This document shows, in pieces, positions 5,262-62,924 of a stretch of 64,000 nucleotides of DNA (the first letter of the stretch is position 1; each line of letters begins with the position of its first letter). Source of the DNA: an uncultured bacterium (GTDB taxonomy: Bacteria > Methylomirabilota > Methylomirabilia > Methylomirabilales > 2-02-FULL-66-22); NCBI GenBank assembly GCA_964576535.1, contig CAZNWB010000001.1, positions 243-64,242 on the forward strand, read 5' to 3'. The notes beneath the pieces are model-generated. The model was not told the DNA's origin. It saw only the letters and a list, made by a program, of their open reading frames with translations, and did no database searches. Position numbers and translations under genes: made by a program.

Positions 5262-5906
5262 TTACCCCGTGCCGCGCGACGACCCGCCGCTCGCGTGGAT
5301 GCGAACTTTCTCGGCCAGGCGGACCAGCTCCGCAACTGAGCCTGCCCGCATCTTCTCCATGACCCTCGCCCTATGCACCTTGACCGTCTTTTCTCTGATC
5401 CCCAGCTCGAAGGCGATCTGCTTGTTCAGCATCCCGGTGACCACGAGGACCATCACCTCGCGCTCCCGCGATGTCAGCGCCTGGACCCTTTCTTGGATGC
5501 CCCGGATCTCGGCCCGGGCGACCCGGGCCTGACGCGCCTTGGCCAGGGACCGCGTCACTGCCTCGAGCAGGTCCCGGCCGTTGAACGGCTTGGGGAGGAA
5601 GTCTATGGCGCCGGCCTTCATGGCCTTGACGCTGGTAGGGATGTCGCTCTGGCCGCTGATGAAGACGACGGGGAAGGTGTTCTCCGCCCTGGCCAGCGTC
5701 TCTTGCAGGTCCAGGCCGGTCAGTCCCGGCATGTGCACGTCCAGCACCAAACAGCCTACGCCGTCACCCCGTTCGCGCTTCAGGAACTCCTCGGCGGAGA
5801 CAAAGGTCTCCGCCCGGTAGCCGGCGGATCGCAGGAGCCGTGCCAGCGCCTTGCGCACCGACGGCTCGTCATCAATCACGAAAACCGTGCCCTCACGGTC
5901 TGCCAT
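5262..5906 (-). CDS. response regulator, REC + LuxR/FixJ-type HTH
   Basis: The REC domain shows VFVIDDEPSVR...LVLDVHMPGLTG. The C-terminal HTH reads LTSREREVMVLVVTGMLNKQIAFELGIREKTVKVHR. The start is an ATG at 5906, and no histidine kinase lies adjacent. Confidence 0.85.
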   Translation of the reverse strand: MADREGTVFVIDDEPSVRKALARLLRSAGYRAETFVSAEEFLKRERGDGVGCLVLDVHMPGLTGLDLQETLARAENTFPVVFISGQSDIPTSVKAMKAGAIDFLPKPFNGRDLLEAVTRSLAKARQARVARAEIRGIQERVQALTSREREVMVLVVTGMLNKQIAFELGIREKTVKVHRARVMEKMRAGSVAELVRLAEKVRIHASGGSSRGTG

Positions 5907-52073: not shown

Positions 52074-52631
52074 TTACCTGGCCGTCGAATGCCCCCGACC
52101 TAGTGGTCGCAAGTAGTCGGGAAGTCGGGTCTTCTCGTCGATGACCGCCGACTCGATCTGCTGAGGCCTGAGACCTATTGCCCCCGAAAGATCGACCCCC
52201 TGAAGCTGGGCACCCTGCAGATTGGCCTGCCAGAAAAACGTCTCGCGGAGATCCGCTCCTTCGAAGTTCGCCTCCTGGAGATTGGCTCCCTGCAGGCTGG
52301 CTCCCTGGAGCTGGGCTTTCTCGAGGTTGGCGCCCTGCAGGTCCGCGCCCTGAAGATGGGCCCCCTGGAGGTTGGCCCCCTGAAGCTGGGCCTCCTGAAG
52401 GTTCGCGCCCTTCAGGTCTGCCCCTTGCAGATCCGCTCCCCGCAGGTCGGCCCCCGCAAGTATCGCACGTTTGCTCAACGGCGCTGATGCAGCCTCAAGG
52501 TTTCGACCGTCAGACAGAGCCCACCCAAGTATAGCCAGGACCGCACAGATTGCCGCTAGCCGGGCGAAAGACCCGGTGCGCCACGGGAATCTCTGGATGG
52601 GCAACCAAAACTGCGGGTGCTGTCGGGCCAT
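52074..52631 (-). CDS. pentapeptide-repeat protein with N-terminal membrane anchor
   Basis: A long run of A(D/N)LxG pentapeptides is present (ADLRGADLQGADLKGANLQEAQLQGANLQGAHLQGADLQGANL...). The start is probably the ATG at 52631. Confidence 0.8.
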   Translation of the reverse strand: MARQHPQFWLPIQRFPWRTGSFARLAAICAVLAILGWALSDGRNLEAASAPLSKRAILAGADLRGADLQGADLKGANLQEAQLQGANLQGAHLQGADLQGANLEKAQLQGASLQGANLQEANFEGADLRETFFWQANLQGAQLQGVDLSGAIGLRPQQIESAVIDEKTRLPDYLRPLGRGHSTAR

Positions 52632-53218
52632 GGACCCCCCTCCCCGGAGGCACCATACATACCCCGGCAGTCCCACTTTCAGCAATACCCTTTACACAGA
52701 GACACCGGGAAGGGGTGGGGAGCGGTCAGGCGGCAAGCGGAACGACCACTATGGGAGGGGATCTTGCCAAAGAGATAAACTACCGCTATCGTCCCCCCTA
52801 TGCCCTGCGGTCTCCGCCGGGCCGCCTCAGTGGTCCTGGACTCCGGGAGAATCCGCGGGATCGAGGAATGCTTTCTTCCCTGTGCGCGGCCTCTCCTCAC
52901 AGGCCCTCCACGCCGCTGCCCAGCGGGGCCAGATGGCCGCGCCCCGGTGGAGGGCGGTGTGGAAGAAGTTGATGTAATTGACAACGTCCCCAATCCCCAA
53001 CGTCCCCAATCCCTACGGATGCAACGTGCCCGCATTTCGCATTTTAAGAACCTCAGAGACCAGATGAGAAGGGGAGAGAGACTCAAATGGGATGAAATGT
53101 GGATGGATCTGCACAACAACCGCGAGGGCCGTTCCGGGAGAAGTGCGTGGGACCTGTTGTGCGAGGGACGTCTAAGAACAATTGATCCCCCCTATAGGGG
53201 GAAAGGCGGTTTCTATTA

Positions 53219-54888: not shown

Positions 54889-55227
54889 TTAGGCGGCTCC
54901 TTGTAAGATCTGTTCAATCTGCGGCCTGACTTCAGCAAGACGCTCCTTGATCGTTTTCCATACCAGTTCGTAATCTACCCCAAAGTAGAAGTGAATCAGC
55001 CTATCCCTCATCCCGGCCATCTCCCTCCAGGGAACCTCAGGATGACGTTGCCGTATCTCCTCAGGGACCCCCTTCGTCGCCTCGCCAATGATCTCGAACT
55101 TCCTGATGACCGCGCTCGCAGTCTTGTCATCGAGGCGGAATGCCTCCAAGTCCATCCCCTCTACGAAAGCTTCGATGCTGCGCATTGCGGCCAGGATATC
55201 CTTCAGATAGAGCCTGTAATCCCTCAC
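54889..55227 (-). CDS. hepT: HepT (DUF86, HEPN) toxin
   Basis: The Rx4H HEPN motif is present (RDRLIH). The N-terminus is family-typical ([11 protein letters not shown]). The GTG start overlaps the mntA stop (GTGA). Confidence 0.8.
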
Positions 55228-55523
55228 AGGGGCAGAACCTCTTTAAGCACCGACTCCCGGAGCTCTGCCCTCAGGGCACGCTTGGGGATCACGTCTACCC
55301 CTCGCCCGAGCTCTTCCTCCAGGAACAGCGCCAGCCCCACCAGGTGAAACAGGTCCGCTCCCTCCTCAAAGTCCACCAAGACATCAATATCACTGGCACT
55401 CCGCTGCTCCCCTCGAACGAAAGAACCGAAGAGCCCTACCTCTTTCACCTTGTACCGTGCCGCCATCTTGGGTTTCAGTGCTTTCAGCTTCATCAGAAGA
55501 TCTTTTGTGCTGATACTTGACAT
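55224..55523 (-). CDS. mntA: MntA-type nucleotidyltransferase antitoxin
   Basis: The minimal nucleotidyltransferase motif is [24 protein letters not shown] prefer the ATG at 55523 behind GGGGGAG. The ATG at 55550 is also possible. Confidence 0.8.
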
Positions 55524-55720
55524 TGACTCCCCCACAACTGCTGCAACCATGGGCGGCCTGGCGACGGAGGCTCGCCGGTATCGCGCTGAGCAGGGCCGTC
55601 AGGTGAGTCGAGGCAACCGAGAGAAGCCTGTGAGGCTTCGAGCGCCCAAGTCTTTGGAACGATCGTCAGGACACTGGCCGCGGGCAACCCCGGTCAGATA
55701 GTAGAGGATCTGGCTGGCGA

Positions 55721-56086: not shown

Positions 56087-57358
56087 TCAGGCGCGCCGGG
56101 CGGTCGGGCCCTCCCCGTTCAGCGAGGGGTGCTGGGCCAGCGCCTCGTCAAAGGACGCCAGGGTCGGCTGGATGCCGGTCGGCGCCCGCAGCGCGCCGCC
56201 CAGCGCCTCCTGCGTCTTCAGCCCGTGGCCGGTCACCGAGATCACGGTGACGTCGTCCCGGCCGATCACCCCCTGCTGCGCCAGCTTGCGCGTGGCAGCC
56301 ACGGTGACGCCGCCCGCCGTTTCCGCGAAGATCCCCTCGGTGGCGGCGAGCATCTTCATGGCTTCCACGATCTCGTCGTCCGTGGCGTGCTCCCCGGCCC
56401 CACCGCTCTCCTTGACCACCTTGTAGGCATAGTACCCGTCGGCCGGGTTGCCGATGGCCAGGGACTTGGCGATGGTCCGGGGTTGCTTGACCGGGCGGAT
56501 GATCTCGCTCCCGGCCTTCACCGATGTCACGATGGGCCCGCACCCGGCCGCCTGCGCCACGTGCATCCGCGTGGCAACGGCCGGCAGCAGCCCCAGCTTG
56601 TAGAACTCCTGCAGGCCCTTCCAGACCTTCGTGATCAGGGAGCCGCCGGCGGCCGGCACGATGATGTGGTCGGGCGCCCGCCAGCCCAATTGCTCGGCGA
56701 TCTCGTAACCGAAGGTCTTGGACCCTTCGGCATAATATGGGCGAATATTGATGTTGACGAAGGCCCAGCCGTACTTGTCGGCGACCTCGCTGCACAGCCG
56801 GTTCACCTCGTCGTACGTCCCATCCACCGCCACCACGTTGGGGGCATAGATGGAGGTCCCCAGGACCTTGCCCTGCTCCAGGTCGGCCGGGATGAACACG
56901 AAGCTGGTGAGGCCCCCCTCGGCGGCGTGGGCGGCCACCGAGTTCGCCAGGTTCCCTGTGGAGGCGCAGGCGACTACCGGGAACCCGAACTCCAGCGCCC
57001 GGATCACCGCCACCGCGACCACCCGGTCCTTGAAGGACAGCGTCGGGTGATTGACCGTGTCGTTCTTGACGTAGAGGTTGCTGAGTCCCAGGGCCTTCCC
57101 CAGGTTCCGGGCCCGGACCAGCGGGGTCAGGCCGCAATGCCGCCCCACCGTCACCTCGCCGTCGATGGGAAGCAGCGCCCGGTAGCGCCACATGTTGGGA
57201 GGGCCGGCCTCGATGGCGCGGTGGGTCAGTACCCGCCCGATGCCTGCGTAATCGTAATCCACCTCCAGCGGACCGAAACAGAACTCGCACACGTGAAGCG
57301 GCTTGGCCGGATAGGGTCGGGCGCACTCCCGGCACTTCAGGCCAATCACATATCCCAT
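56087..57358 (-). CDS. threonine-synthase-family PLP enzyme with N-terminal zinc ribbon (MetM-like candidate homocysteine synthase)
   Basis: The zinc ribbon is LKCRECARPYPAKPLHVCEFCFGPLEV and the PLP-lysine context is HPTLSFKDRV. The gene sits inside a SAM-riboswitch-controlled unit next to a MoaD-like gene. The start is an ATG at 57358, with an alternative at 57409. Confidence 0.75.
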   Translation of the reverse strand: MGYVIGLKCRECARPYPAKPLHVCEFCFGPLEVDYDYAGIGRVLTHRAIEAGPPNMWRYRALLPIDGEVTVGRHCGLTPLVRARNLGKALGLSNLYVKNDTVNHPTLSFKDRVVAVAVIRALEFGFPVVACASTGNLANSVAAHAAEGGLTSFVFIPADLEQGKVLGTSIYAPNVVAVDGTYDEVNRLCSEVADKYGWAFVNINIRPYYAEGSKTFGYEIAEQLGWRAPDHIIVPAAGGSLITKVWKGLQEFYKLGLLPAVATRMHVAQAAGCGPIVTSVKAGSEIIRPVKQPRTIAKSLAIGNPADGYYAYKVVKESGGAGEHATDDEIVEAMKMLAATEGIFAETAGGVTVAATRKLAQQGVIGRDDVTVISVTGHGLKTQEALGGALRAPTGIQPTLASFDEALAQHPSLNGEGPTARRA

Positions 57359-57405: not shown

Positions 57406-57648
57406 TCACGCAGTTGCCCCGGGGGTGCCGATCGGCCTGACCTTGACCCCCAGGCGGGTCAGGTGCTCAATGCCGCGCTTCAGGTCGTCCTCCGCCCCGG
57501 TGAAATCCAGCGTGGCCTCTCCCGACGCCTCCGTGACCCGGGCCTTGCGGATGTTCGGCACCAGACGGTATGTCTTGGACACGGTGTAGATCAGCGGCTC
57601 ACGCACCAGGTCCGGCGGAAAGATCAACAACAGGCGCAGGGTGGCCAT
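57406..57648 (-). CDS. free-standing NIL-domain protein (about 80 aa), first gene after the SAM riboswitch
   Basis: MATLRLLLIFPPDLVREPLIYTVSKTYRLVPNIRKARVTEASGEATLDFTGAEDDLKRGIEHLTRLGVKV follows the NIL (MetN C-terminal) pattern. The start is an ATG at 57648. Confidence 0.7.
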   Translation of the reverse strand: MATLRLLLIFPPDLVREPLIYTVSKTYRLVPNIRKARVTEASGEATLDFTGAEDDLKRGIEHLTRLGVKVRPIGTPGATA

Positions 57649-57663: not shown

Positions 57664-57698
57664 AAAGAAAAAGCCCCCTCTCGATCCTGAGAAGGGGC
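57664..57698 (-). terminator. intrinsic terminator (expression platform of the SAM-I riboswitch)
   Basis: In the minus-strand RNA, GCCCCUUCUC-AGGAUC-GAGAGGGGGC forms a 10-bp stem with one G-U pair. It is followed by UUUUUCUUU and lies 16 nt upstream of the NIL start codon. Confidence 0.8.
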
Positions 57699-57724
57699 TC
57701 ACGAAAATTCCCGTCAGCCGCCTT

Positions 57725-57824
57725 CTCATCTTTCCCCGCCGAAGGCGGGGCAGGAGTTGGCACCCCGCGTCTCGCGGGGTTGCCGTGGCTTCGTAGGGCC
57801 AGTCCCTCAGCCACTCGGGATGAG
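57725..57824 (-). promoter_or_regulatory. SAM-I (S-box) riboswitch aptamer
   Basis: The minus strand reads CUCAUCCCGAGUGGCUGAGGGACUGGCCCUACGAAGCCACGGCAACC[CCGCGAGACGCGG]GGUGCCAACUCCUGC[CCCGCCUUCGGCGGGG]AAAGAUGAG. It matches the S-box consensus block by block: CUUAUCAAGAG-GG-GGAGGGACUGGCCC-AUGAA-CC-GGCAACC...GGUGC-AA-UCC-GC...AAAGAUAAG. Confidence 0.9.
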
Positions 57825-57839
57825 TCAGCGTTGCGGCGG

Positions 57840-57868
57840 ATTTAAGCAGAGCCAGGTAGTGGTGTCAA
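57840..57868 (-). promoter_or_regulatory. candidate sigma70-type promoter driving the riboswitch leader
   Basis: On the minus strand: TTGACA (57868-57863), a 17-nt spacer, then TTAAAT (57845-57840). The aptamer P1 starts about 15 nt downstream. Confidence 0.6.
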
Positions 57869-58283: not shown

Positions 58284-58808
58284 TCAGGCCGCCGGCAGGC
58301 TGGCCGGAACCTCGGCGAAGTCCCCACGGACACCGTCCCAGACGTAGTAACGGGCGTCCACGGCCCGGCCAGTGCGGACGGAAACCACCAGGTAGTTGGC
58401 GCCGGGCCAGAGGGGTTCTGAGTCGGCCCGGAGGGCCCGATCCCGATCCATCAGGGAAAAGTAGGCGTCGTGATCCGGGTGAGAGTGGTAGAAGGTCACG
58501 ACATCCCACCCCGCATCGTCCGCCTCGCGGAGCACGCGCAGCACCTCCCGGTCATCCATCCGGTAGGCGGTCCGCGCATCCCGCTCGAATCCCGCGGGAT
58601 CCCGCTGGCGGTCCTGATTGGCGATGTTGCGCACCTGGCGGACCTGGTAGGTCTCGGGCTTCCCCGGCTTGCCGATGACGATCCCGCAGATCTCCTCCGG
58701 GTATCCCGCCTCGGCCTGCCGGACGATCTCGGCCATCTGGATCGCCTGCAAGGGATAGACGGCCGCCATCCGCTCCCCCGTCGTGGTCATCTCCCTCTCG
58801 GTTCGCAT
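58284..58808 (-). CDS. JAMM/MPN+ metalloprotease (Mec/HcyD-like)
   Basis: The motif ExnHxHx7Sx2D is complete (PEEICGIVIG ... HSHPDHDAYFSLMD). The start could be any of three ATGs (58808, 58790, 58769). Confidence 0.85.
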   Translation of the reverse strand: MRTEREMTTTGERMAAVYPLQAIQMAEIVRQAEAGYPEEICGIVIGKPGKPETYQVRQVRNIANQDRQRDPAGFERDARTAYRMDDREVLRVLREADDAGWDVVTFYHSHPDHDAYFSLMDRDRALRADSEPLWPGANYLVVSVRTGRAVDARYYVWDGVRGDFAEVPASLPAA

Positions 58809-59013
58809 CTTCTCACCCGAGGCCCATCCCGTTGGATTTCGGATTGTGGATCACCCAGGGGGTACCCGATTTCGGATTGGTCAAATTCGAAATTCGAAAT
58901 TGGGGTCAGGTCCCGGTGTCTCGGCTCTGGGCTCTCGGCCCGCATTTATCACACGGGGCCCCGTCCCGACCTCCACCTCCCTCGTCGGCGGCGGTCGGGT
59001 CCCTCCCCGGGGG

Positions 59014-59946
59014 CTACCACCAGATATGACTCTGGACGTTCTCCCCCAGGTTCGGGATCTCCTTGAACCAGACGCCAAGGCTCACGTACTTCCATCCACC
59101 ATCGCAGAGCACGCAGACGATCGTGCCCTTCTCCATCCGGTGGGCCACCCGGATGGCGCAGTGAATGACGGCGCCCGAGGAGATACCGGCGAAGATGGCT
59201 TCCTTCGTGGTCAGATCCTTGGTGGCAGCGAAGGCGCACCGGCTGTCCACGATGATCTTCCCATCCAGCAGGCTAGTATCCAGGATCGGCGGGATGAAGC
59301 CCTCCTCCAGGCTCCGCAGTCCCTGCACCAGATCTCCCGGATGGGGTTCCACGGCCACGACCCGGATCTTGGGATTGTATTCCTTCAGGCGCCGGGCGCA
59401 CCCCATGAGGGTCCCCCCGGTCCCCAGGCCCGCCACCAGCACGTCCACCTCGGGACAGTCGCGGATGATCTCGGCCGCCGTCGTCTCGTAGTGCGCCAGG
59501 GGATTGGCCGGATTCCCGTACTGGTATGGCATGTAGTACCGCGGGTCCGCCGCCAGCTGCTGCGCCAGCTTGATGGAGCCGTTGGTGCCCTGGTTCCCAT
59601 CCGAGTAGACGATCTCCGCGCCGAACAGTTCCAGGAGCTGTCTCCGTTCCACGGTCACGTTGTCCGGCACCACGACTTTGACCTTGTACCCCTTCAGCCG
59701 CGCCACCATGGCCAGCGCGATCCCGGTGTTCCCGCTGGTCGGCTCGAGGATGACCTTGTCCGGCGTGAGGTCGCCGCTCCGCTCGGCCGCCTCGATCATG
59801 TACATGGCGATGCGATCCTTCAGGCTGCCGGTGGGGTTGTTCCCCTCCAGCTTGGCGTAGATCCGGACCGTCGGTTTCGGGCTGATCCGGCGGAGCTCAA
59901 CCAGCGGGGTGTTCCCGATGGCCTCCAGGATGCTGGCCGCTTTCAT
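59014..59946 (-). CDS. cysM: CysM-type cysteine synthase (O-phosphoserine / protein-thiocarboxylate-dependent type)
   Basis: The PLP-lysine context is NPTGSLKDR. The strings [36 protein letters not shown] and YQYGNPANP and the aromatic C-terminal tail (...HIWW) closely resemble my recollection of mycobacterial CysM. Confidence 0.8.
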   Translation of the reverse strand: MKAASILEAIGNTPLVELRRISPKPTVRIYAKLEGNNPTGSLKDRIAMYMIEAAERSGDLTPDKVILEPTSGNTGIALAMVARLKGYKVKVVVPDNVTVERRQLLELFGAEIVYSDGNQGTNGSIKLAQQLAADPRYYMPYQYGNPANPLAHYETTAAEIIRDCPEVDVLVAGLGTGGTLMGCARRLKEYNPKIRVVAVEPHPGDLVQGLRSLEEGFIPPILDTSLLDGKIIVDSRCAFAATKDLTTKEAIFAGISSGAVIHCAIRVAHRMEKGTIVCVLCDGGWKYVSLGVWFKEIPNLGENVQSHIWW

Positions 59947-60053
59947 GGATGCAACTCCACCCTGGAGCTCTTCATGCGCCTGCGGAATATCCGGGGCACC
60001 TCAAGGCAAATTGCCATTCTCTCCCCTTCGACTACGGGACCGGTCACACTCGA

Positions 60054-60143
60054 AGCCGTTCGGTTGTTCGGTGGTTCGTTGGTTCGGTGGTTCCCTTCTG
60101 AGACGAACAACCGAACCACCGAACAGTCGAACCCCCGAACGCC
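60054..60143. repeat. CGAAC/GTTCG-unit palindromic intercistronic element, copy E
   Basis: The sequence is AGCCGTTCGGTTGTTCGGTGGTTCGTTGGTTCGGTGGTTCC-CTTCTGAGAC-GAACAACCGAACCACCGAACAGTCGAACCCCCGAACGCC. It lies between the Ubl-E1 stop and the cysM start. Confidence 0.85.
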
Positions 60144-60149
60144 TTTTCC

Positions 60150-61241
60150 TCAGGTCGGGCGTGCCGACTGTGGGACGCCGCAGAATTCCTGGTAGTCGAT
60201 GAGGTCCGTGATCGTCGGGTGATCCCCGCACACCGGACAGGTGGGATCCCGGCGGATTTTCACCTGCCGGAACTCCATGCCCAAAGCGTCGAAGAACATC
60301 AGGCGGCCCACCAGGGATTCGCCCAGGCCCAGGAGCAGCTTGATCGTCTCGATGCCCTGGATGGAGGCCACGACACCGCACAGGACGCCGAAGACCCCCG
60401 CCTCCTGGCAGCTCGGCACGAGTCCCGGGGGCGGGGGAGCCGGATACAGGCAGCGGTAGCAGCCCTTCCCGGGCACGAACACCGTGACCTGCCCCTCGAA
60501 CTTGAAGATACTTCCGTCCACCATGGGCTTGTTCAGGAAAAAACAGGCGTCATTCGCCAGGTAGCGCGTCGGGAAGTTGTCGCAGCCATTCACGATCACG
60601 TCGTACTCGGCGAAGATCTGCTTCACGTTCTCCGAGGTCAGGGCCTGGTTGTATGGAACCACCTTCACGTCTGGATTGAGGTCGGCGATGGTCTCCACCG
60701 CCGACTGCACCTTGGGCCGCCCGATGTCGTGGACGTGGTGCAGGATCTGCCGCTGCAGGTTGCTGAGATCCACCACGTCGAAATCCACGATGCCCAGGGT
60801 GCCGACCCCGGCCGCCGCCAGGTACAGTGCCGCCGGCGAGCCGAGCCCGCCCGCCCCGATCAGCAGGACCTTGCTGTTCAGGAGCTTTCGCTGGCCCATG
60901 CCCCCGACCTCGGGGAGGATGATGTGCCGGCTGTACCGCCGGATCTGCTCCTCGGTGAAGCTCAGCGCCCCACCCACCATGGCGGGAATCACCGCCACCT
61001 GATCCCCGTCCCGCAGCGGCGTCTGCATGCCTTGCAGGTCGTCCACCGGCTCATCGTTCACGTAGATGTTCAGGTGCCGGTAGATCTTCCCCTCCGAGTC
61101 CAGGATGCGATCCCGCAGCCCCGGAAACCGCCCCTCCAGCGCCCGGACCAGGGCCAGGACATCGTTCTCCTGGACCTCCACCCGCGAGGCATTGTCGGTG
61201 TACTTGCGGTATGGGGTGGGGATATATACGGTCACAGCCAT
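60150..61241 (-). CDS. fusion protein: MoaD/CysO-like ubiquitin-fold domain (res 1-91, ending GG) + MoeB/ThiF-type E1 adenylyltransferase
   Basis: The junction reads ...LNIYVNDEPVDDLQGMQTPLRDGDQVAVIPAMVGG-A-LSFTEEQIRRYSRHIILPEVGGMGQRKLLNSKVLLIGAGGLGSP.... The E1 zinc motifs are CYRC and CPVC. There is no rhodanese domain. The ORF is continuous and has an AAGGAGGAGG RBS. Confidence 0.8.
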   Translation of the reverse strand: MAVTVYIPTPYRKYTDNASRVEVQENDVLALVRALEGRFPGLRDRILDSEGKIYRHLNIYVNDEPVDDLQGMQTPLRDGDQVAVIPAMVGGALSFTEEQIRRYSRHIILPEVGGMGQRKLLNSKVLLIGAGGLGSPAALYLAAAGVGTLGIVDFDVVDLSNLQRQILHHVHDIGRPKVQSAVETIADLNPDVKVVPYNQALTSENVKQIFAEYDVIVNGCDNFPTRYLANDACFFLNKPMVDGSIFKFEGQVTVFVPGKGCYRCLYPAPPPPGLVPSCQEAGVFGVLCGVVASIQGIETIKLLLGLGESLVGRLMFFDALGMEFRQVKIRRDPTCPVCGDHPTITDLIDYQEFCGVPQSARPT

Positions 61242-61495
61242 CGTCCTCCTCCTTGAGCACCCACCAGAGCCATCAGGACAGGAAGCACTCGCAATATTGC
61301 ATCGCCATGATCACCCAGTCCGCCAGAGGCGGACGCTGGGTACCCGGGTCGCCAAGAAACCACTACTTCCTCAAAGAGACCGGCAGGTTGCCAGTGTTCC
61401 GGTGCGCCCGTTTCAGGACTGCTCTTTCTTTCGGCGTCAGCCCTTTCGACCCATGGCGTTCTTGGCGCCTTGGCGGTTGAAATTCCGGACCCGGG

Positions 61496-62440
61496 CTAGA
61501 TCGCCATGCTGAGATAGCGCTCGCCTGTATCGGGCAGCATGGTGACCACCGTCTTCCCCACGCCCAGCCGCTCCGCCACGCGGAGGGCCGCCACCACGTT
61601 GGCCCCCGAGGACACGCCCACCAGCAGGCCCTCCTCCCGCGAGAGGCGCCGGGTCATGGCCAAGGCCTCCTCGTCGCGAACCCCGATGACCTCGTCGTAG
61701 ATCTCCCGGTTCAGGACGCCGGGGACGAAGCTGGCGCCGATCCCCTGGATCGCGTGCGGCCGGAATTTGCCCCCCTGCAAGACCGGCGCGCGCGCCGGCT
61801 CCACCGCCACCACCAGGACGCCCGGCCGCTCGCGCTTGAGCACCTCCCCCACACCGGTGATGGTGCCCCCCGTCCCCACGCCGGCCACGAAGGCGTCCAC
61901 CTGGCCGTCGGTAGCCTTCAGGATCTCCTGGGCGGTCGTCCGGCGGTGGATCTCGGGATTCGCCGGATTCACAAACTGCTGAGGCATGAAGAATCCCGGG
62001 TGTTCCCGCACCAGCTCCTCGGCCGCAAACACGGCGCCGGTCATTCCCTCCACCGCCGGGGTCAGCGCCAGCTCCGCCCCAAACCGCTGGAGGAGCGCGC
62101 GGCGCTCCAGGCTCATATCCTCGGGCATAGTCAGGATCAGGCGGTAGCCCTTGACCGCCGCCACCATGGCCAAGCCGATGCCGGTGTTGCCCGACGTCGG
62201 CTCGACGATCGTATCGCCGGGCTTCAGCCGGCCCTCGCGCTCCGCCTCCTCCACCATGGCGAGGGCGATCCGATCCTTGACGCTCCCCCCAGGGTTGAGT
62301 GACTCAAGCTTCCCGAACACCGCGGCCCACCCCGGCTTCACCAGCCGGCGCAGGCGGACCAACGGGGTGTCCCCGATCAGGTCCAGTGCGCTGGAAACCA
62401 GCCGTGTCACGCAGGCCTCTTCGCGGAATCCGGTCCGCAT
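61496..62440 (-). CDS. cysK: cysteine synthase A-type PLP enzyme
   Basis: The N-terminal region is [10 protein letters not shown]...NPGGSVKDR, and [10 protein letters not shown] is present. The start is an ATG at 62440, or a GTG at 62410. The 389-aa track ORF overlaps the Rrf2 gene and is an extension. Confidence 0.85.
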
Positions 62441-62477
62441 CCGTCCGATCGCCCGATCGCCCCGCCATCGGCTGGGG

Positions 62478-62924
62478 TCAGATCTGATACGTGATCCGCT
62501 CCTTGGTTCTGGTCCGGATCCGCTCGCAGATGTCCTGGAGCGTCGTGTGATCCACGATGGCCGAGACCGCATCCCGCACGTCGGCCCAGGTATCGCGCAG
62601 GGTGCAGAAGCTTTCCTGCGAGCAATGCTCCCGCGGGCTCTCCGAGACGCAGAAGATGGGCGCAATGGGTCCGTCCACGGCGCGGAGGATTTGCCCCAGG
62701 GTGATCTCCCGTGGCGGCTTGGCCAGGTAATAGCCGCCCTTGACGCCCCGCTTGCTGGCCAGGAACCCGGCTCGCTTCAGGATGAGGAGGAGCTGCTCCA
62801 GATACCTGGCAGGAAGGGCCTGACGTTGTGCGATGGCCTCGATCGGAACCGGCCCCTCCTCGTACCGCATCGCCAAGTCTTGCAAAGCCCGAGTGGCGTA
62901 GTCGCCTTTTGTCGAGATCCTCAT
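62478..62924 (-). CDS. Rrf2 family transcriptional regulator with three-Cys cluster motif
   Basis: The N-terminus is [14 protein letters not shown] and the wHTH is [30 protein letters not shown]. The Cys motif is [16 protein letters not shown] (Cx8Cx5C). Confidence 0.85.

Follow-up and report, generated by a model that had tools for sequence, protein, structure and literature searches.

A SAM-I riboswitch as a probable transcriptional OFF switch of a MetM/MetO-like operon in a Methylomirabilota genome

The element described here is an S-adenosylmethionine (SAM)-I riboswitch on the minus strand of contig CAZNWB010000001.1 (assembly GCA_964576535.1) from an uncultured bacterium of the phylum Methylomirabilota, of which a stretch of 64 kb was analysed as a whole (the window). 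The riboswitch precedes an operon of three genes coding for a stand-alone NIL protein (NIL_A), a pyridoxal phosphate (PLP) enzyme of the ThrC family and a sulfur carrier of the MoaD/ThiS fold. Our analysis indicates, with a probability that we put at roughly 85%, that the riboswitch would act as a transcriptional OFF switch for this NIL / MetM-like / MetO-like operon. An earlier description of this DNA (the original prediction) had proposed a complete unit of promoter, aptamer and terminator at this place; the unit was confirmed, and an antiterminator could be added to it (Table 1).

The aptamer matched the Rfam family RF00162 over its full length (cmscan, model positions 1-108 of 108, not truncated) with a score of 90.9 bits and an E value of 2.2e-20. 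The score exceeds the gathering score of the family, 44.4 bits, so that the Infernal check suggested in the original prediction supports its reading of the aptamer as an S-box by consensus blocks, all of which are present (P1 CUCAUC/GAUGAG, GAGGGACUGGCCC, GGCAACC, GGUGCCAACUCCUGC and AAAGAUGAG). According to cmscan, helices P2-P4 contain no non-standard pair, and the outermost modelled pair of P1 alone was flagged. RF00162 was the sole Rfam family above its gathering threshold in the whole 64 kb, and scans of the window together with 81 loci returned only SAM-I and two tRNA matches, with no other class of SAM riboswitch and no other Rfam family. When 15 aligned aptamers were folded with RNAalifold, the P1-P4 four-way junction was recovered, and compensatory changes on both sides were found to keep 10 of the 26 consensus pairs. 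Judged by the identity of its aptamer, this RNA is a genuine SAM-I riboswitch and is predicted to bind SAM.

Downstream of the aptamer the terminator scan detected an intrinsic terminator, GAGCCCCUUCUC-AGGAUC-GAGAGGGGGCUU followed by the U-tract UUUUUCUUU, which has a loop of 6 nt, G-C pairs at 7 of the 12 positions of its stem and a folding energy of -22.0 kcal/mol as an isolated hairpin. The hairpin had previously been given 10 bp and an end 16 nt before the NIL start codon. The terminator itself stood, the scan extended the stem to 12 pairs, and the distance was essentially right, there being 15 nt between the end of the U-tract (57664) and the start codon of NIL_A (57648). The antiterminator pairs GAGAAGG-C-GGCU (57727-57716) with AGCC-C-CUUCUC (57699-57689); its 11 pairs are all standard, and the isolated hairpin has an energy of -23.7 kcal/mol. 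The sequence GAGAAGG is common to the antiterminator and to the 3' side of P1 with its extension (the 3' strand of P1, GAUGAG, occupies 57730-57725), and the 3' arm of the antiterminator is at the same time the 5' arm of the terminator, which makes the two helices mutually exclusive. Enforced folds of the whole leader showed that the OFF state (P1 plus terminator, -90.8 kcal/mol) and the ON state (antiterminator, -90.7 kcal/mol) are isoenergetic. This is the bistable arrangement expected for a classical S-box leader, in which the ligand would tip the balance towards P1 and termination. Since a Shine-Dalgarno-like GGGGA is located 3' of the U-tract and is part of neither alternative helix, the control exerted by the riboswitch is most likely chiefly transcriptional.

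The promoter 5' of the aptamer can be written as TTGACA-N14-TGC-TTAAAT. It had been noted before as TTGACA-N17-TTAAAT on the minus strand and is indeed present at 57868-57840, and we class it as an extended -10 promoter because TGC precedes the hexamer. A search of the 64 kb for TTGACA-N14-TGN-TNNNNT gives a single match, which is this very promoter, with 0.02 matches expected. The minimum free energy (MFE) structure of the 191-nt leader consists of the aptamer and the terminator, and none of 200 shuffled sequences equalled it (z = -4.9). The G+C content is very high (0.67).

The conservation of the unit was assessed in 80 related loci, which came from a search for relatives of the ThrC-like protein in one genome per species. 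The nearest of them belong to NC10/Methylomirabilota metagenome-assembled genomes (MAGs), with 88% amino-acid identity to the ThrC-like protein of the window, and a metagenome protein was 97% identical to it. Rfam scans of all 80 loci revealed SAM-I in 13: in every one of the nine loci of the Methylomirabilales type (L001-L009), which have the aptamer between two NIL genes as the window does, in three 'Deltaproteobacteria'/Desulfobacterota MAGs (L049, L066 and L067) and in one Dehalococcoidia MAG (L068). Each of these 13 leaders has, like the window, an upstream TTGACA, a hairpin followed by a U-run, and the duplex between the 3' side of P1 and the 5' side of the terminator. All 14 terminator-type leaders (the window and the 13 relatives) have a perfect TTGACA 30-62 nt 5' of the aptamer, and TGN followed by a T-rich hexamer was also found in L001-L004 and L006-L009. 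Moreover, the P1 pairing CUCAUC/GAUGAG of the window group is replaced by CUUAUC/GAUAAG in L049, L066 and L067, and in the same three loci the terminator arm CUUCUCA is replaced by CUUCUUAUC. As P1 and the terminator arm change together, the antiterminator co-varies with P1. Conservation of the whole unit, compensatory changes included, extends as far as relatives that have about 63-66% identity to the window in their enzymes.

A gene for an Rrf2/CymR-like regulator was observed beside the ThrC-like/MoaD-like cluster in 11 loci (L012, L029, L050, L055, L057, L058, L062, L064, L072, L074 and L078), and none of these is among the 13 loci with the SAM riboswitch, which suggests that control by a protein regulator is the alternative there. 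The window has both, the riboswitch and an Rrf2 gene at the far end of the cluster.

What the operon would produce depends on the identity of the ThrC-like enzyme. A MoaD-like gene lies 3' of the ThrC-like gene in 76 of the 80 relatives; among the remaining four, one locus has no downstream flank and three are from Poribacteria. In these Poribacteria (L076, L077 and L080) the ThrC-like genes are 62-64% identical to that of the window, and no MoaD-like gene, NIL gene or riboswitch was found within 4 kb of them. The carrier-linked ThrC-like enzymes are 50-68% identical among themselves, and unlinked ThrC homologues (haloarchaeal, Azospirillum and Chlorohelix genes and the Aquifex ThrC structure 2zsj) are 30-39% identical to them. 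For the enzyme of the window, the identity to ThrC homologues without a carrier neighbour is 34-39%. The gene also lacks the canonical context of thrC (hom/thrB/thrC with no sulfur carrier), being placed between the genes for NIL and the MoaD-like protein and behind a SAM riboswitch.

A homocysteine synthase of this kind has been described. As stated in a passage of PMC12172450 on Hasebe et al. 2024 (Appl Environ Microbiol 90:e01247-24), MetM is a homocysteine synthase, and a SAM riboswitch is located upstream of metM in Streptomyces albulus. Citing the same work, a section of the GapMind 2026 preprint (10.1101/2024.10.14.618325) reports that MetM of S. albulus forms homocysteine from O-phosphohomoserine and the thiocarboxylate of MetO, and that the MetO carrier depends on Mec (JAMM) and MoeZ. 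We compared the window with an actinomycete locus in Nonomuraea gerenzanensis (L081; NZ_LT559118.1, 11806244-11815452), which contains, in this order, SAM-I (68.7 bits), a ThrC-like gene and a gene for a MoaD-like protein of 91 aa ending in GG. The replicon of this locus has 11.85 Mb and 10 annotated features and bears the label 'plasmid I' in PLSDB; it is effectively a chromosome. Over their full length, zinc ribbon included, the ThrC-like enzymes of Nonomuraea and of the window are 54% identical. This comparison supports a correspondence between the ThrC-like/carrier pair of the window and MetM/MetO, the orthology being drawn by way of the Nonomuraea protein.

The trio was placed in the methionine regulon in the original prediction, and this assignment is supported because the riboswitch is conserved, the carrier-linked enzymes form a distinct group and the biochemistry of MetM is published. 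The further proposal that the ThrC homologue makes homocysteine and not threonine also gains support from the precedent of MetM/MetO and from the carrier linkage, and we retain it as the predicted function. The riboswitch had been called the strongest sequence-level argument for it; this is fair, but the sulfur carrier, the linkage of which is conserved, provides an argument of about the same strength. In addition, switching off at high SAM would be sensible for the synthesis of homocysteine and perverse for the synthesis of threonine.

The identity of the aptamer, the pair of alternative folds and its conservation, and the linkage of the genes lead us to propose the following mechanism. Transcription would start a few nucleotides 3' of the extended -10 promoter and proceed into the 104-nt aptamer. 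When SAM is abundant, its binding would lock P1 and sequester GAUGAG(AAGG), so that the 12-bp terminator could form and RNA polymerase would halt at the U-tract, 15 nt ahead of the NIL start codon. At low SAM, base-pairing of the 3' P1 strand and its extension, GAGAAGGCGGCU, with the terminator's 5' arm, AGCCCCUUCUC, would allow the polymerase to read through into the three genes. The enzyme and the carrier would then most likely act as MetM/MetO do, converting O-phosphohomoserine and the thiocarboxylated carrier to homocysteine, and the carrier would probably be activated by the ThiF-type E1 enzyme encoded upstream. The carrier of the window ends in ...AIAGG followed by a tail of seven residues (TGDRNGA), and the carriers of the relatives mostly have tails of 1-10 residues after the GG. 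In 66 of the 76 carriers scored among the relatives at least one residue follows the GG, most commonly a single Arg. These tails imply that C-terminal processing would be obligatory, and the tail would probably be removed by the JAMM protease encoded upstream (58284-58808), which is presumably the enzyme responsible.

Several points weigh against this interpretation. The simple (strict) sigma-70 scan of the window did not call the riboswitch promoter, the -10 hexamer of which, TTAAAT, is non-canonical and has T in place of the usual A at position 2. We did not accept this outcome as absence of a promoter, since the site is of the extended -10 type and is conserved. The terminator scan found no terminator between the upstream NIL gene (NIL_B) and the riboswitch, so read-through transcripts may enter the riboswitch, and the autonomy of the unit may be incomplete. 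The Nonomuraea enzyme served as an actinomycete proxy for MetM of S. albulus in the orthology comparison, and the analysis is computational throughout, with SAM binding, termination in vivo, the chemistry of the enzyme and the role of NIL deduced by prediction. The window enzyme scores 276 bits with the threonine synthase model TIGR00260, the cut-off of which is 167, and a MetM homologue from Microcystis has been reported to be mainly a threonine synthase/deaminase (PMC12172450).

The last two findings would suit a true threonine synthase that is regulated by SAM through the shared branch point at O-phosphohomoserine, with the MoaD-like neighbour serving another pathway. The closest solved structures are likewise threonine synthases, and every database gives the protein this name. 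Repression at high SAM would, however, be opposite to the known logic of this branch point, since in plants SAM activates threonine synthase. The carrier gene follows the enzyme gene across phyla, and the carrier-linked enzymes are set apart from the unlinked ThrC homologues by the identities given above; the five carrier-linked or MetM-type enzymes tested pass TIGR00260 at 270-289 bits, and release 20 of NCBIfam holds no model for MetM. Every source that names the ThrC-like protein of the window or its homologues, several thousand of which are so labelled, says 'threonine synthase'. This label is probably a systematic misannotation, and the GapMind preprint (10.1101/2024.10.14.618325) describes MetM, which it reports as a homocysteine synthase, as 'often misannotated' in this way. 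We therefore regard a genuine threonine synthase as quite improbable.

A riboswitch acting mainly on translation, or on both translation and transcription, is also unlikely, although platforms of this kind do exist for the operon type: in Nonomuraea the end of the aptamer is followed after 14 nt by the start codon of the MetM-like gene and no terminator was found there, so that in actinomycetes the switch probably acts on translation. In the MFE fold of the window leader, GGGG and CCCC also pair in a small hairpin close to the start codon. However, the window has a strong hairpin directly before UUUUUCUUU, the Shine-Dalgarno-like element lies outside both alternative helices, and the antiterminator/terminator pair is kept in the 13 relatives. 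The trio could also make another sulfur compound under the control of SAM, for example a thio-cofactor or, through a route like that of CysO/CysM, cysteine. The CysM-like, ThiS-ThiF, JAMM and CysK genes in the surroundings do resemble the mycobacterial CysO/CysM/Mec/MoeZ system, and SAM-I riboswitches control cysteine genes in some bacteria. Yet the CysM-like and CysK genes are located 5' of the promoter and the riboswitch and are not gated, and the enzyme that is gated is a member of the ThrC and not of the CysM family, with only 60 bits in the cysteate synthase model against a cut-off of 325, which makes a product other than homocysteine or threonine very unlikely. That the aptamer is a decaying relic devoid of regulatory function is hardly conceivable, given a score of twice the gathering threshold, the regular pairing of P2-P4 with only the outermost modelled P1 pair flagged, and the retention of the whole unit with compensatory changes in the relatives. 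A transcriptional OFF switch of a homocysteine operon is thus the reading that we prefer.

Only the NIL protein is possibly a new point of this system. NIL is encoded in the cluster in 50 of the 80 loci and in all 13 riboswitch loci, and in eight loci its reading frame continues that of the carrier immediately behind the Gly-Gly, which gives a ThiS-NIL fusion (L049 at 5335-5856, L050, L053, L057, L062, L064, L066 and L072). In the fusion protein of L049, Pfam places ThiS at residues 7-93 and NIL at residues 100-165. NIL begins about five residues after the Gly-Gly of the carrier in these proteins, which thus look like ubiquitin-fusion precursors and would require cleavage by JAMM. The Nonomuraea locus has no NIL protein. 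A sequence search of the PDB gave no match for NIL_A and only weak matches to the C2 domain of MetN for NIL_B (3dhx, E 0.014), which are too weak to deduce a methionine-binding site. NIL has been reported to bind methionine and regulate activity (PMC12068725), and NIL/ferredoxin is required for homocysteine synthesis (PMC5764234); methionine binding has been reported for the NIL domains of both MetN and the archaeal homocysteine enzyme, in the latter case in its NIL/ferredoxin subunit (PMC12068725; PMC5764234). Our literature search, which did not extend to the primary MetM paper, found no paper linking NIL to ThiS/MoaD carriers or to MetM, and searches for ThrC with MoaD in S-box regulons and for NIL with sulfur carriers gave nothing relevant beyond the DUF39/NIL-ferredoxin pathway. 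We tentatively propose, at somewhat less than even odds, that outside actinomycetes the small stand-alone NIL protein is a genuine third component of the MetM/MetO homocysteine system. By analogy, a role in methionine sensing or carrier handling is a reasonable hypothesis; one possibility is that NIL is a methionine-binding subunit that would add feedback at the protein level, or that it gates the maturation of the carrier, on top of the SAM switch.

Table 1. Features of the riboswitch unit, the operon behind it and the adjoining sulfur-carrier cluster
Feature	Position	Strand	Basis
-35 box TTGACA	57863..57868	minus	read directly from the sequence
Extended -10 element TGC-TTAAAT	57840..57848	minus	hexamer TTAAAT at 57845-57840, 17-nt spacer from the -35 box
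SAM-I (S-box) aptamer, helices P1-P4, 104 nt	57723..57826	minus	RF00162 match and compensatory changes
Antiterminator	57689..57727	minus	pairing, enforced folds and 13 relatives
Intrinsic terminator, 12-bp stem 57700-57671 and U-tract ending at 57664	57664..57700	minus	terminator scan
NIL_A, stand-alone NIL protein, 80 aa, first regulated gene	57406..57648	minus	PF09383, E 4.3e-10, 39.8 bits
ThrC-like PLP enzyme, MetM-type putative homocysteine synthase, 423 aa	56087..57358	minus	PALP, E 1e-67; TIGR00260, 276 bits
MoaD/ThiS-fold sulfur carrier (MetO-like), 100 aa	55721..56023	minus	Pfam ThiS, E 5e-18
NIL_B, second stand-alone NIL protein, 84 aa	57880..58134	minus	Pfam NIL, E 5.5e-17, 61.9 bits
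Upstream sulfur-carrier and cysteine cluster, not SAM-gated	58284..62924	minus	Pfam and NCBIfam
JAMM/Mec-like protease (Prok-JAB)	58284-58808	minus	Pfam/NCBIfam
CysM-like enzyme	59014-59946	minus	Pfam/NCBIfam
ThiS-ThiF (carrier-E1) fusion	60150-61241	minus	Pfam/NCBIfam
CysK	about 61496-62400	minus	Pfam/NCBIfam
Rrf2/CymR-like regulator	62478-62924	minus	Pfam/NCBIfam

Both NIL proteins score above the Pfam cut-off for NIL (PF09383), which is 24 bits; the start of NIL_A at 57648 agrees with L001 and L002, and orthologues of NIL_A were detected by tblastn in L001-L009. The ThrC-like enzyme has an N-terminal CxxC...CxxC zinc ribbon and the type II fold of the ThrC family with the PLP lysine, and its SFKDR motif aligns with the threonine synthase 2zsj. 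An open reading frame (ORF) of 440 aa from 57409 is probably too long for it, and the start was set at 57358 because close homologues have 423 aa. NIL_B ends 12 nt 5' of the -35 box and is outside the control of the riboswitch, which is flanked by two NIL paralogues with only NIL_A being SAM-gated. A NIL_B gene lies directly 5' of the riboswitch in L001-L003 and L005-L009, although the genes preceding it vary: in the window it is preceded by the JAMM gene, and in L009 by genes for a PAPS-reductase-like protein and ATP sulfurylase. In the ThiS-ThiF protein of 363 aa, residues 5-91 make up a ThiS/MoaD-like domain, which contains ...MVGG internally and is joined to an E1 enzyme of the MoeB/ThiF type, and in the relatives ThiS and ThiF occur either fused or as separate genes.

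No intrinsic terminator that would mark the 3' end of the operon was found after the MoaD-like gene. Directly 3' of the operon, on the same strand and with no intrinsic terminator in between, a toxin-antitoxin pair of a HepT-like RNase (PF01934) and an MNT nucleotidyltransferase (PF01909) is encoded at 54889-55550. A pentapeptide-repeat protein (52074-52685; PF00805, E 1e-39) lies within a region of short overlapping ORFs without clear genes at about 51.8-54.2 kb. According to Pfam, the part of the window at 35-52 kb contains beta-oxidation, TetR, GGDEF, oxidoreductase and HpaB genes, which are unrelated to the riboswitch operon.

The combination of the riboswitch and the carrier linkage offers a simple rule by which 'threonine synthases' could be re-annotated as homocysteine synthases, and such re-annotation would close apparent gaps in methionine biosynthesis in the genomes of Methylomirabilota, Rokubacteria, Nitrospinota, Nitrospirota and Desulfobacterota. 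Moreover, a single module of promoter and riboswitch appears to split a shared sulfur-carrier toolkit, in that the methionine branch would be gated by SAM and the genes for the E1 enzyme, the JAMM protease and the cysteine enzymes would not.

The riboswitch of the window adds nothing new to SAM-I as a class. It has the four-helix aptamer, the competition between P1, antiterminator and terminator, and the predicted OFF response on methionine and sulfur genes in common with S-box (RF00162) leaders such as metI (yitJ-type) of Bacillus subtilis. It differs from them in its host, a G+C-rich member of the Methylomirabilota (NC10) and not of the Bacillota, and in its position, which is immediately behind another gene and within a larger sulfur-carrier cluster.

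A homocysteine operon under the control of a SAM riboswitch is not new either, since both the pathway and its control were described in Streptomyces in 2024, and the window is a further member, from a different phylum, of the known MetM/MetO-type system. As far as the cited passages describe the S. albulus system, the two have in common a PLP enzyme of the ThrC family encoded beside a carrier of the MoaD/ThiS fold, a SAM riboswitch upstream, a JAMM/Mec protein and an E1 enzyme of the MoeZ/ThiF type for the carrier, and the annotation of the enzyme as threonine synthase. The operon of the window, however, starts with an additional stand-alone NIL gene, it has the E1, JAMM and CysM-like genes immediately upstream, and its expression platform is a terminator, whereas in Nonomuraea, the enzyme of which has the identity noted above, the aptamer abuts the start codon.

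Other pathways share parts of this design. In Wolinella succinogenes, the HcyS/HcyD/HcyF/MetY route reportedly uses a tailed ubiquitin-like carrier, trimming by JAMM and E1-like activation to make homocysteine. There, an O-acetylhomoserine sulfhydrylase (MetY, fold type I) acts on an O-acyl homoserine, whereas the enzyme of the window belongs to the ThrC family. PMC5764234 mentions the Wolinella route as 'the protein thiocarboxylate pathway'. NIL links both the C2 domain of MetN and the NIL/ferredoxin subunit of aspartate-semialdehyde sulfurtransferase (MA1822) to the metabolism of methionine or homocysteine, and both contain the same PF09383 domain; the NIL proteins of the window are free-standing, with 80-84 aa and no ATPase or ferredoxin domain, and in some relatives they are fused to the carrier. 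The genes upstream of the riboswitch (ThiS-ThiF, CysM-like and JAMM) correspond in their parts list to CysO/CysM/Mec+/MoeZ of Mycobacterium tuberculosis. The mycobacterial system is a cysteine pathway, and the likeness to it concerns the ungated half of the window cluster, in which, unlike in M. tuberculosis, the carrier is fused to the E1 enzyme.

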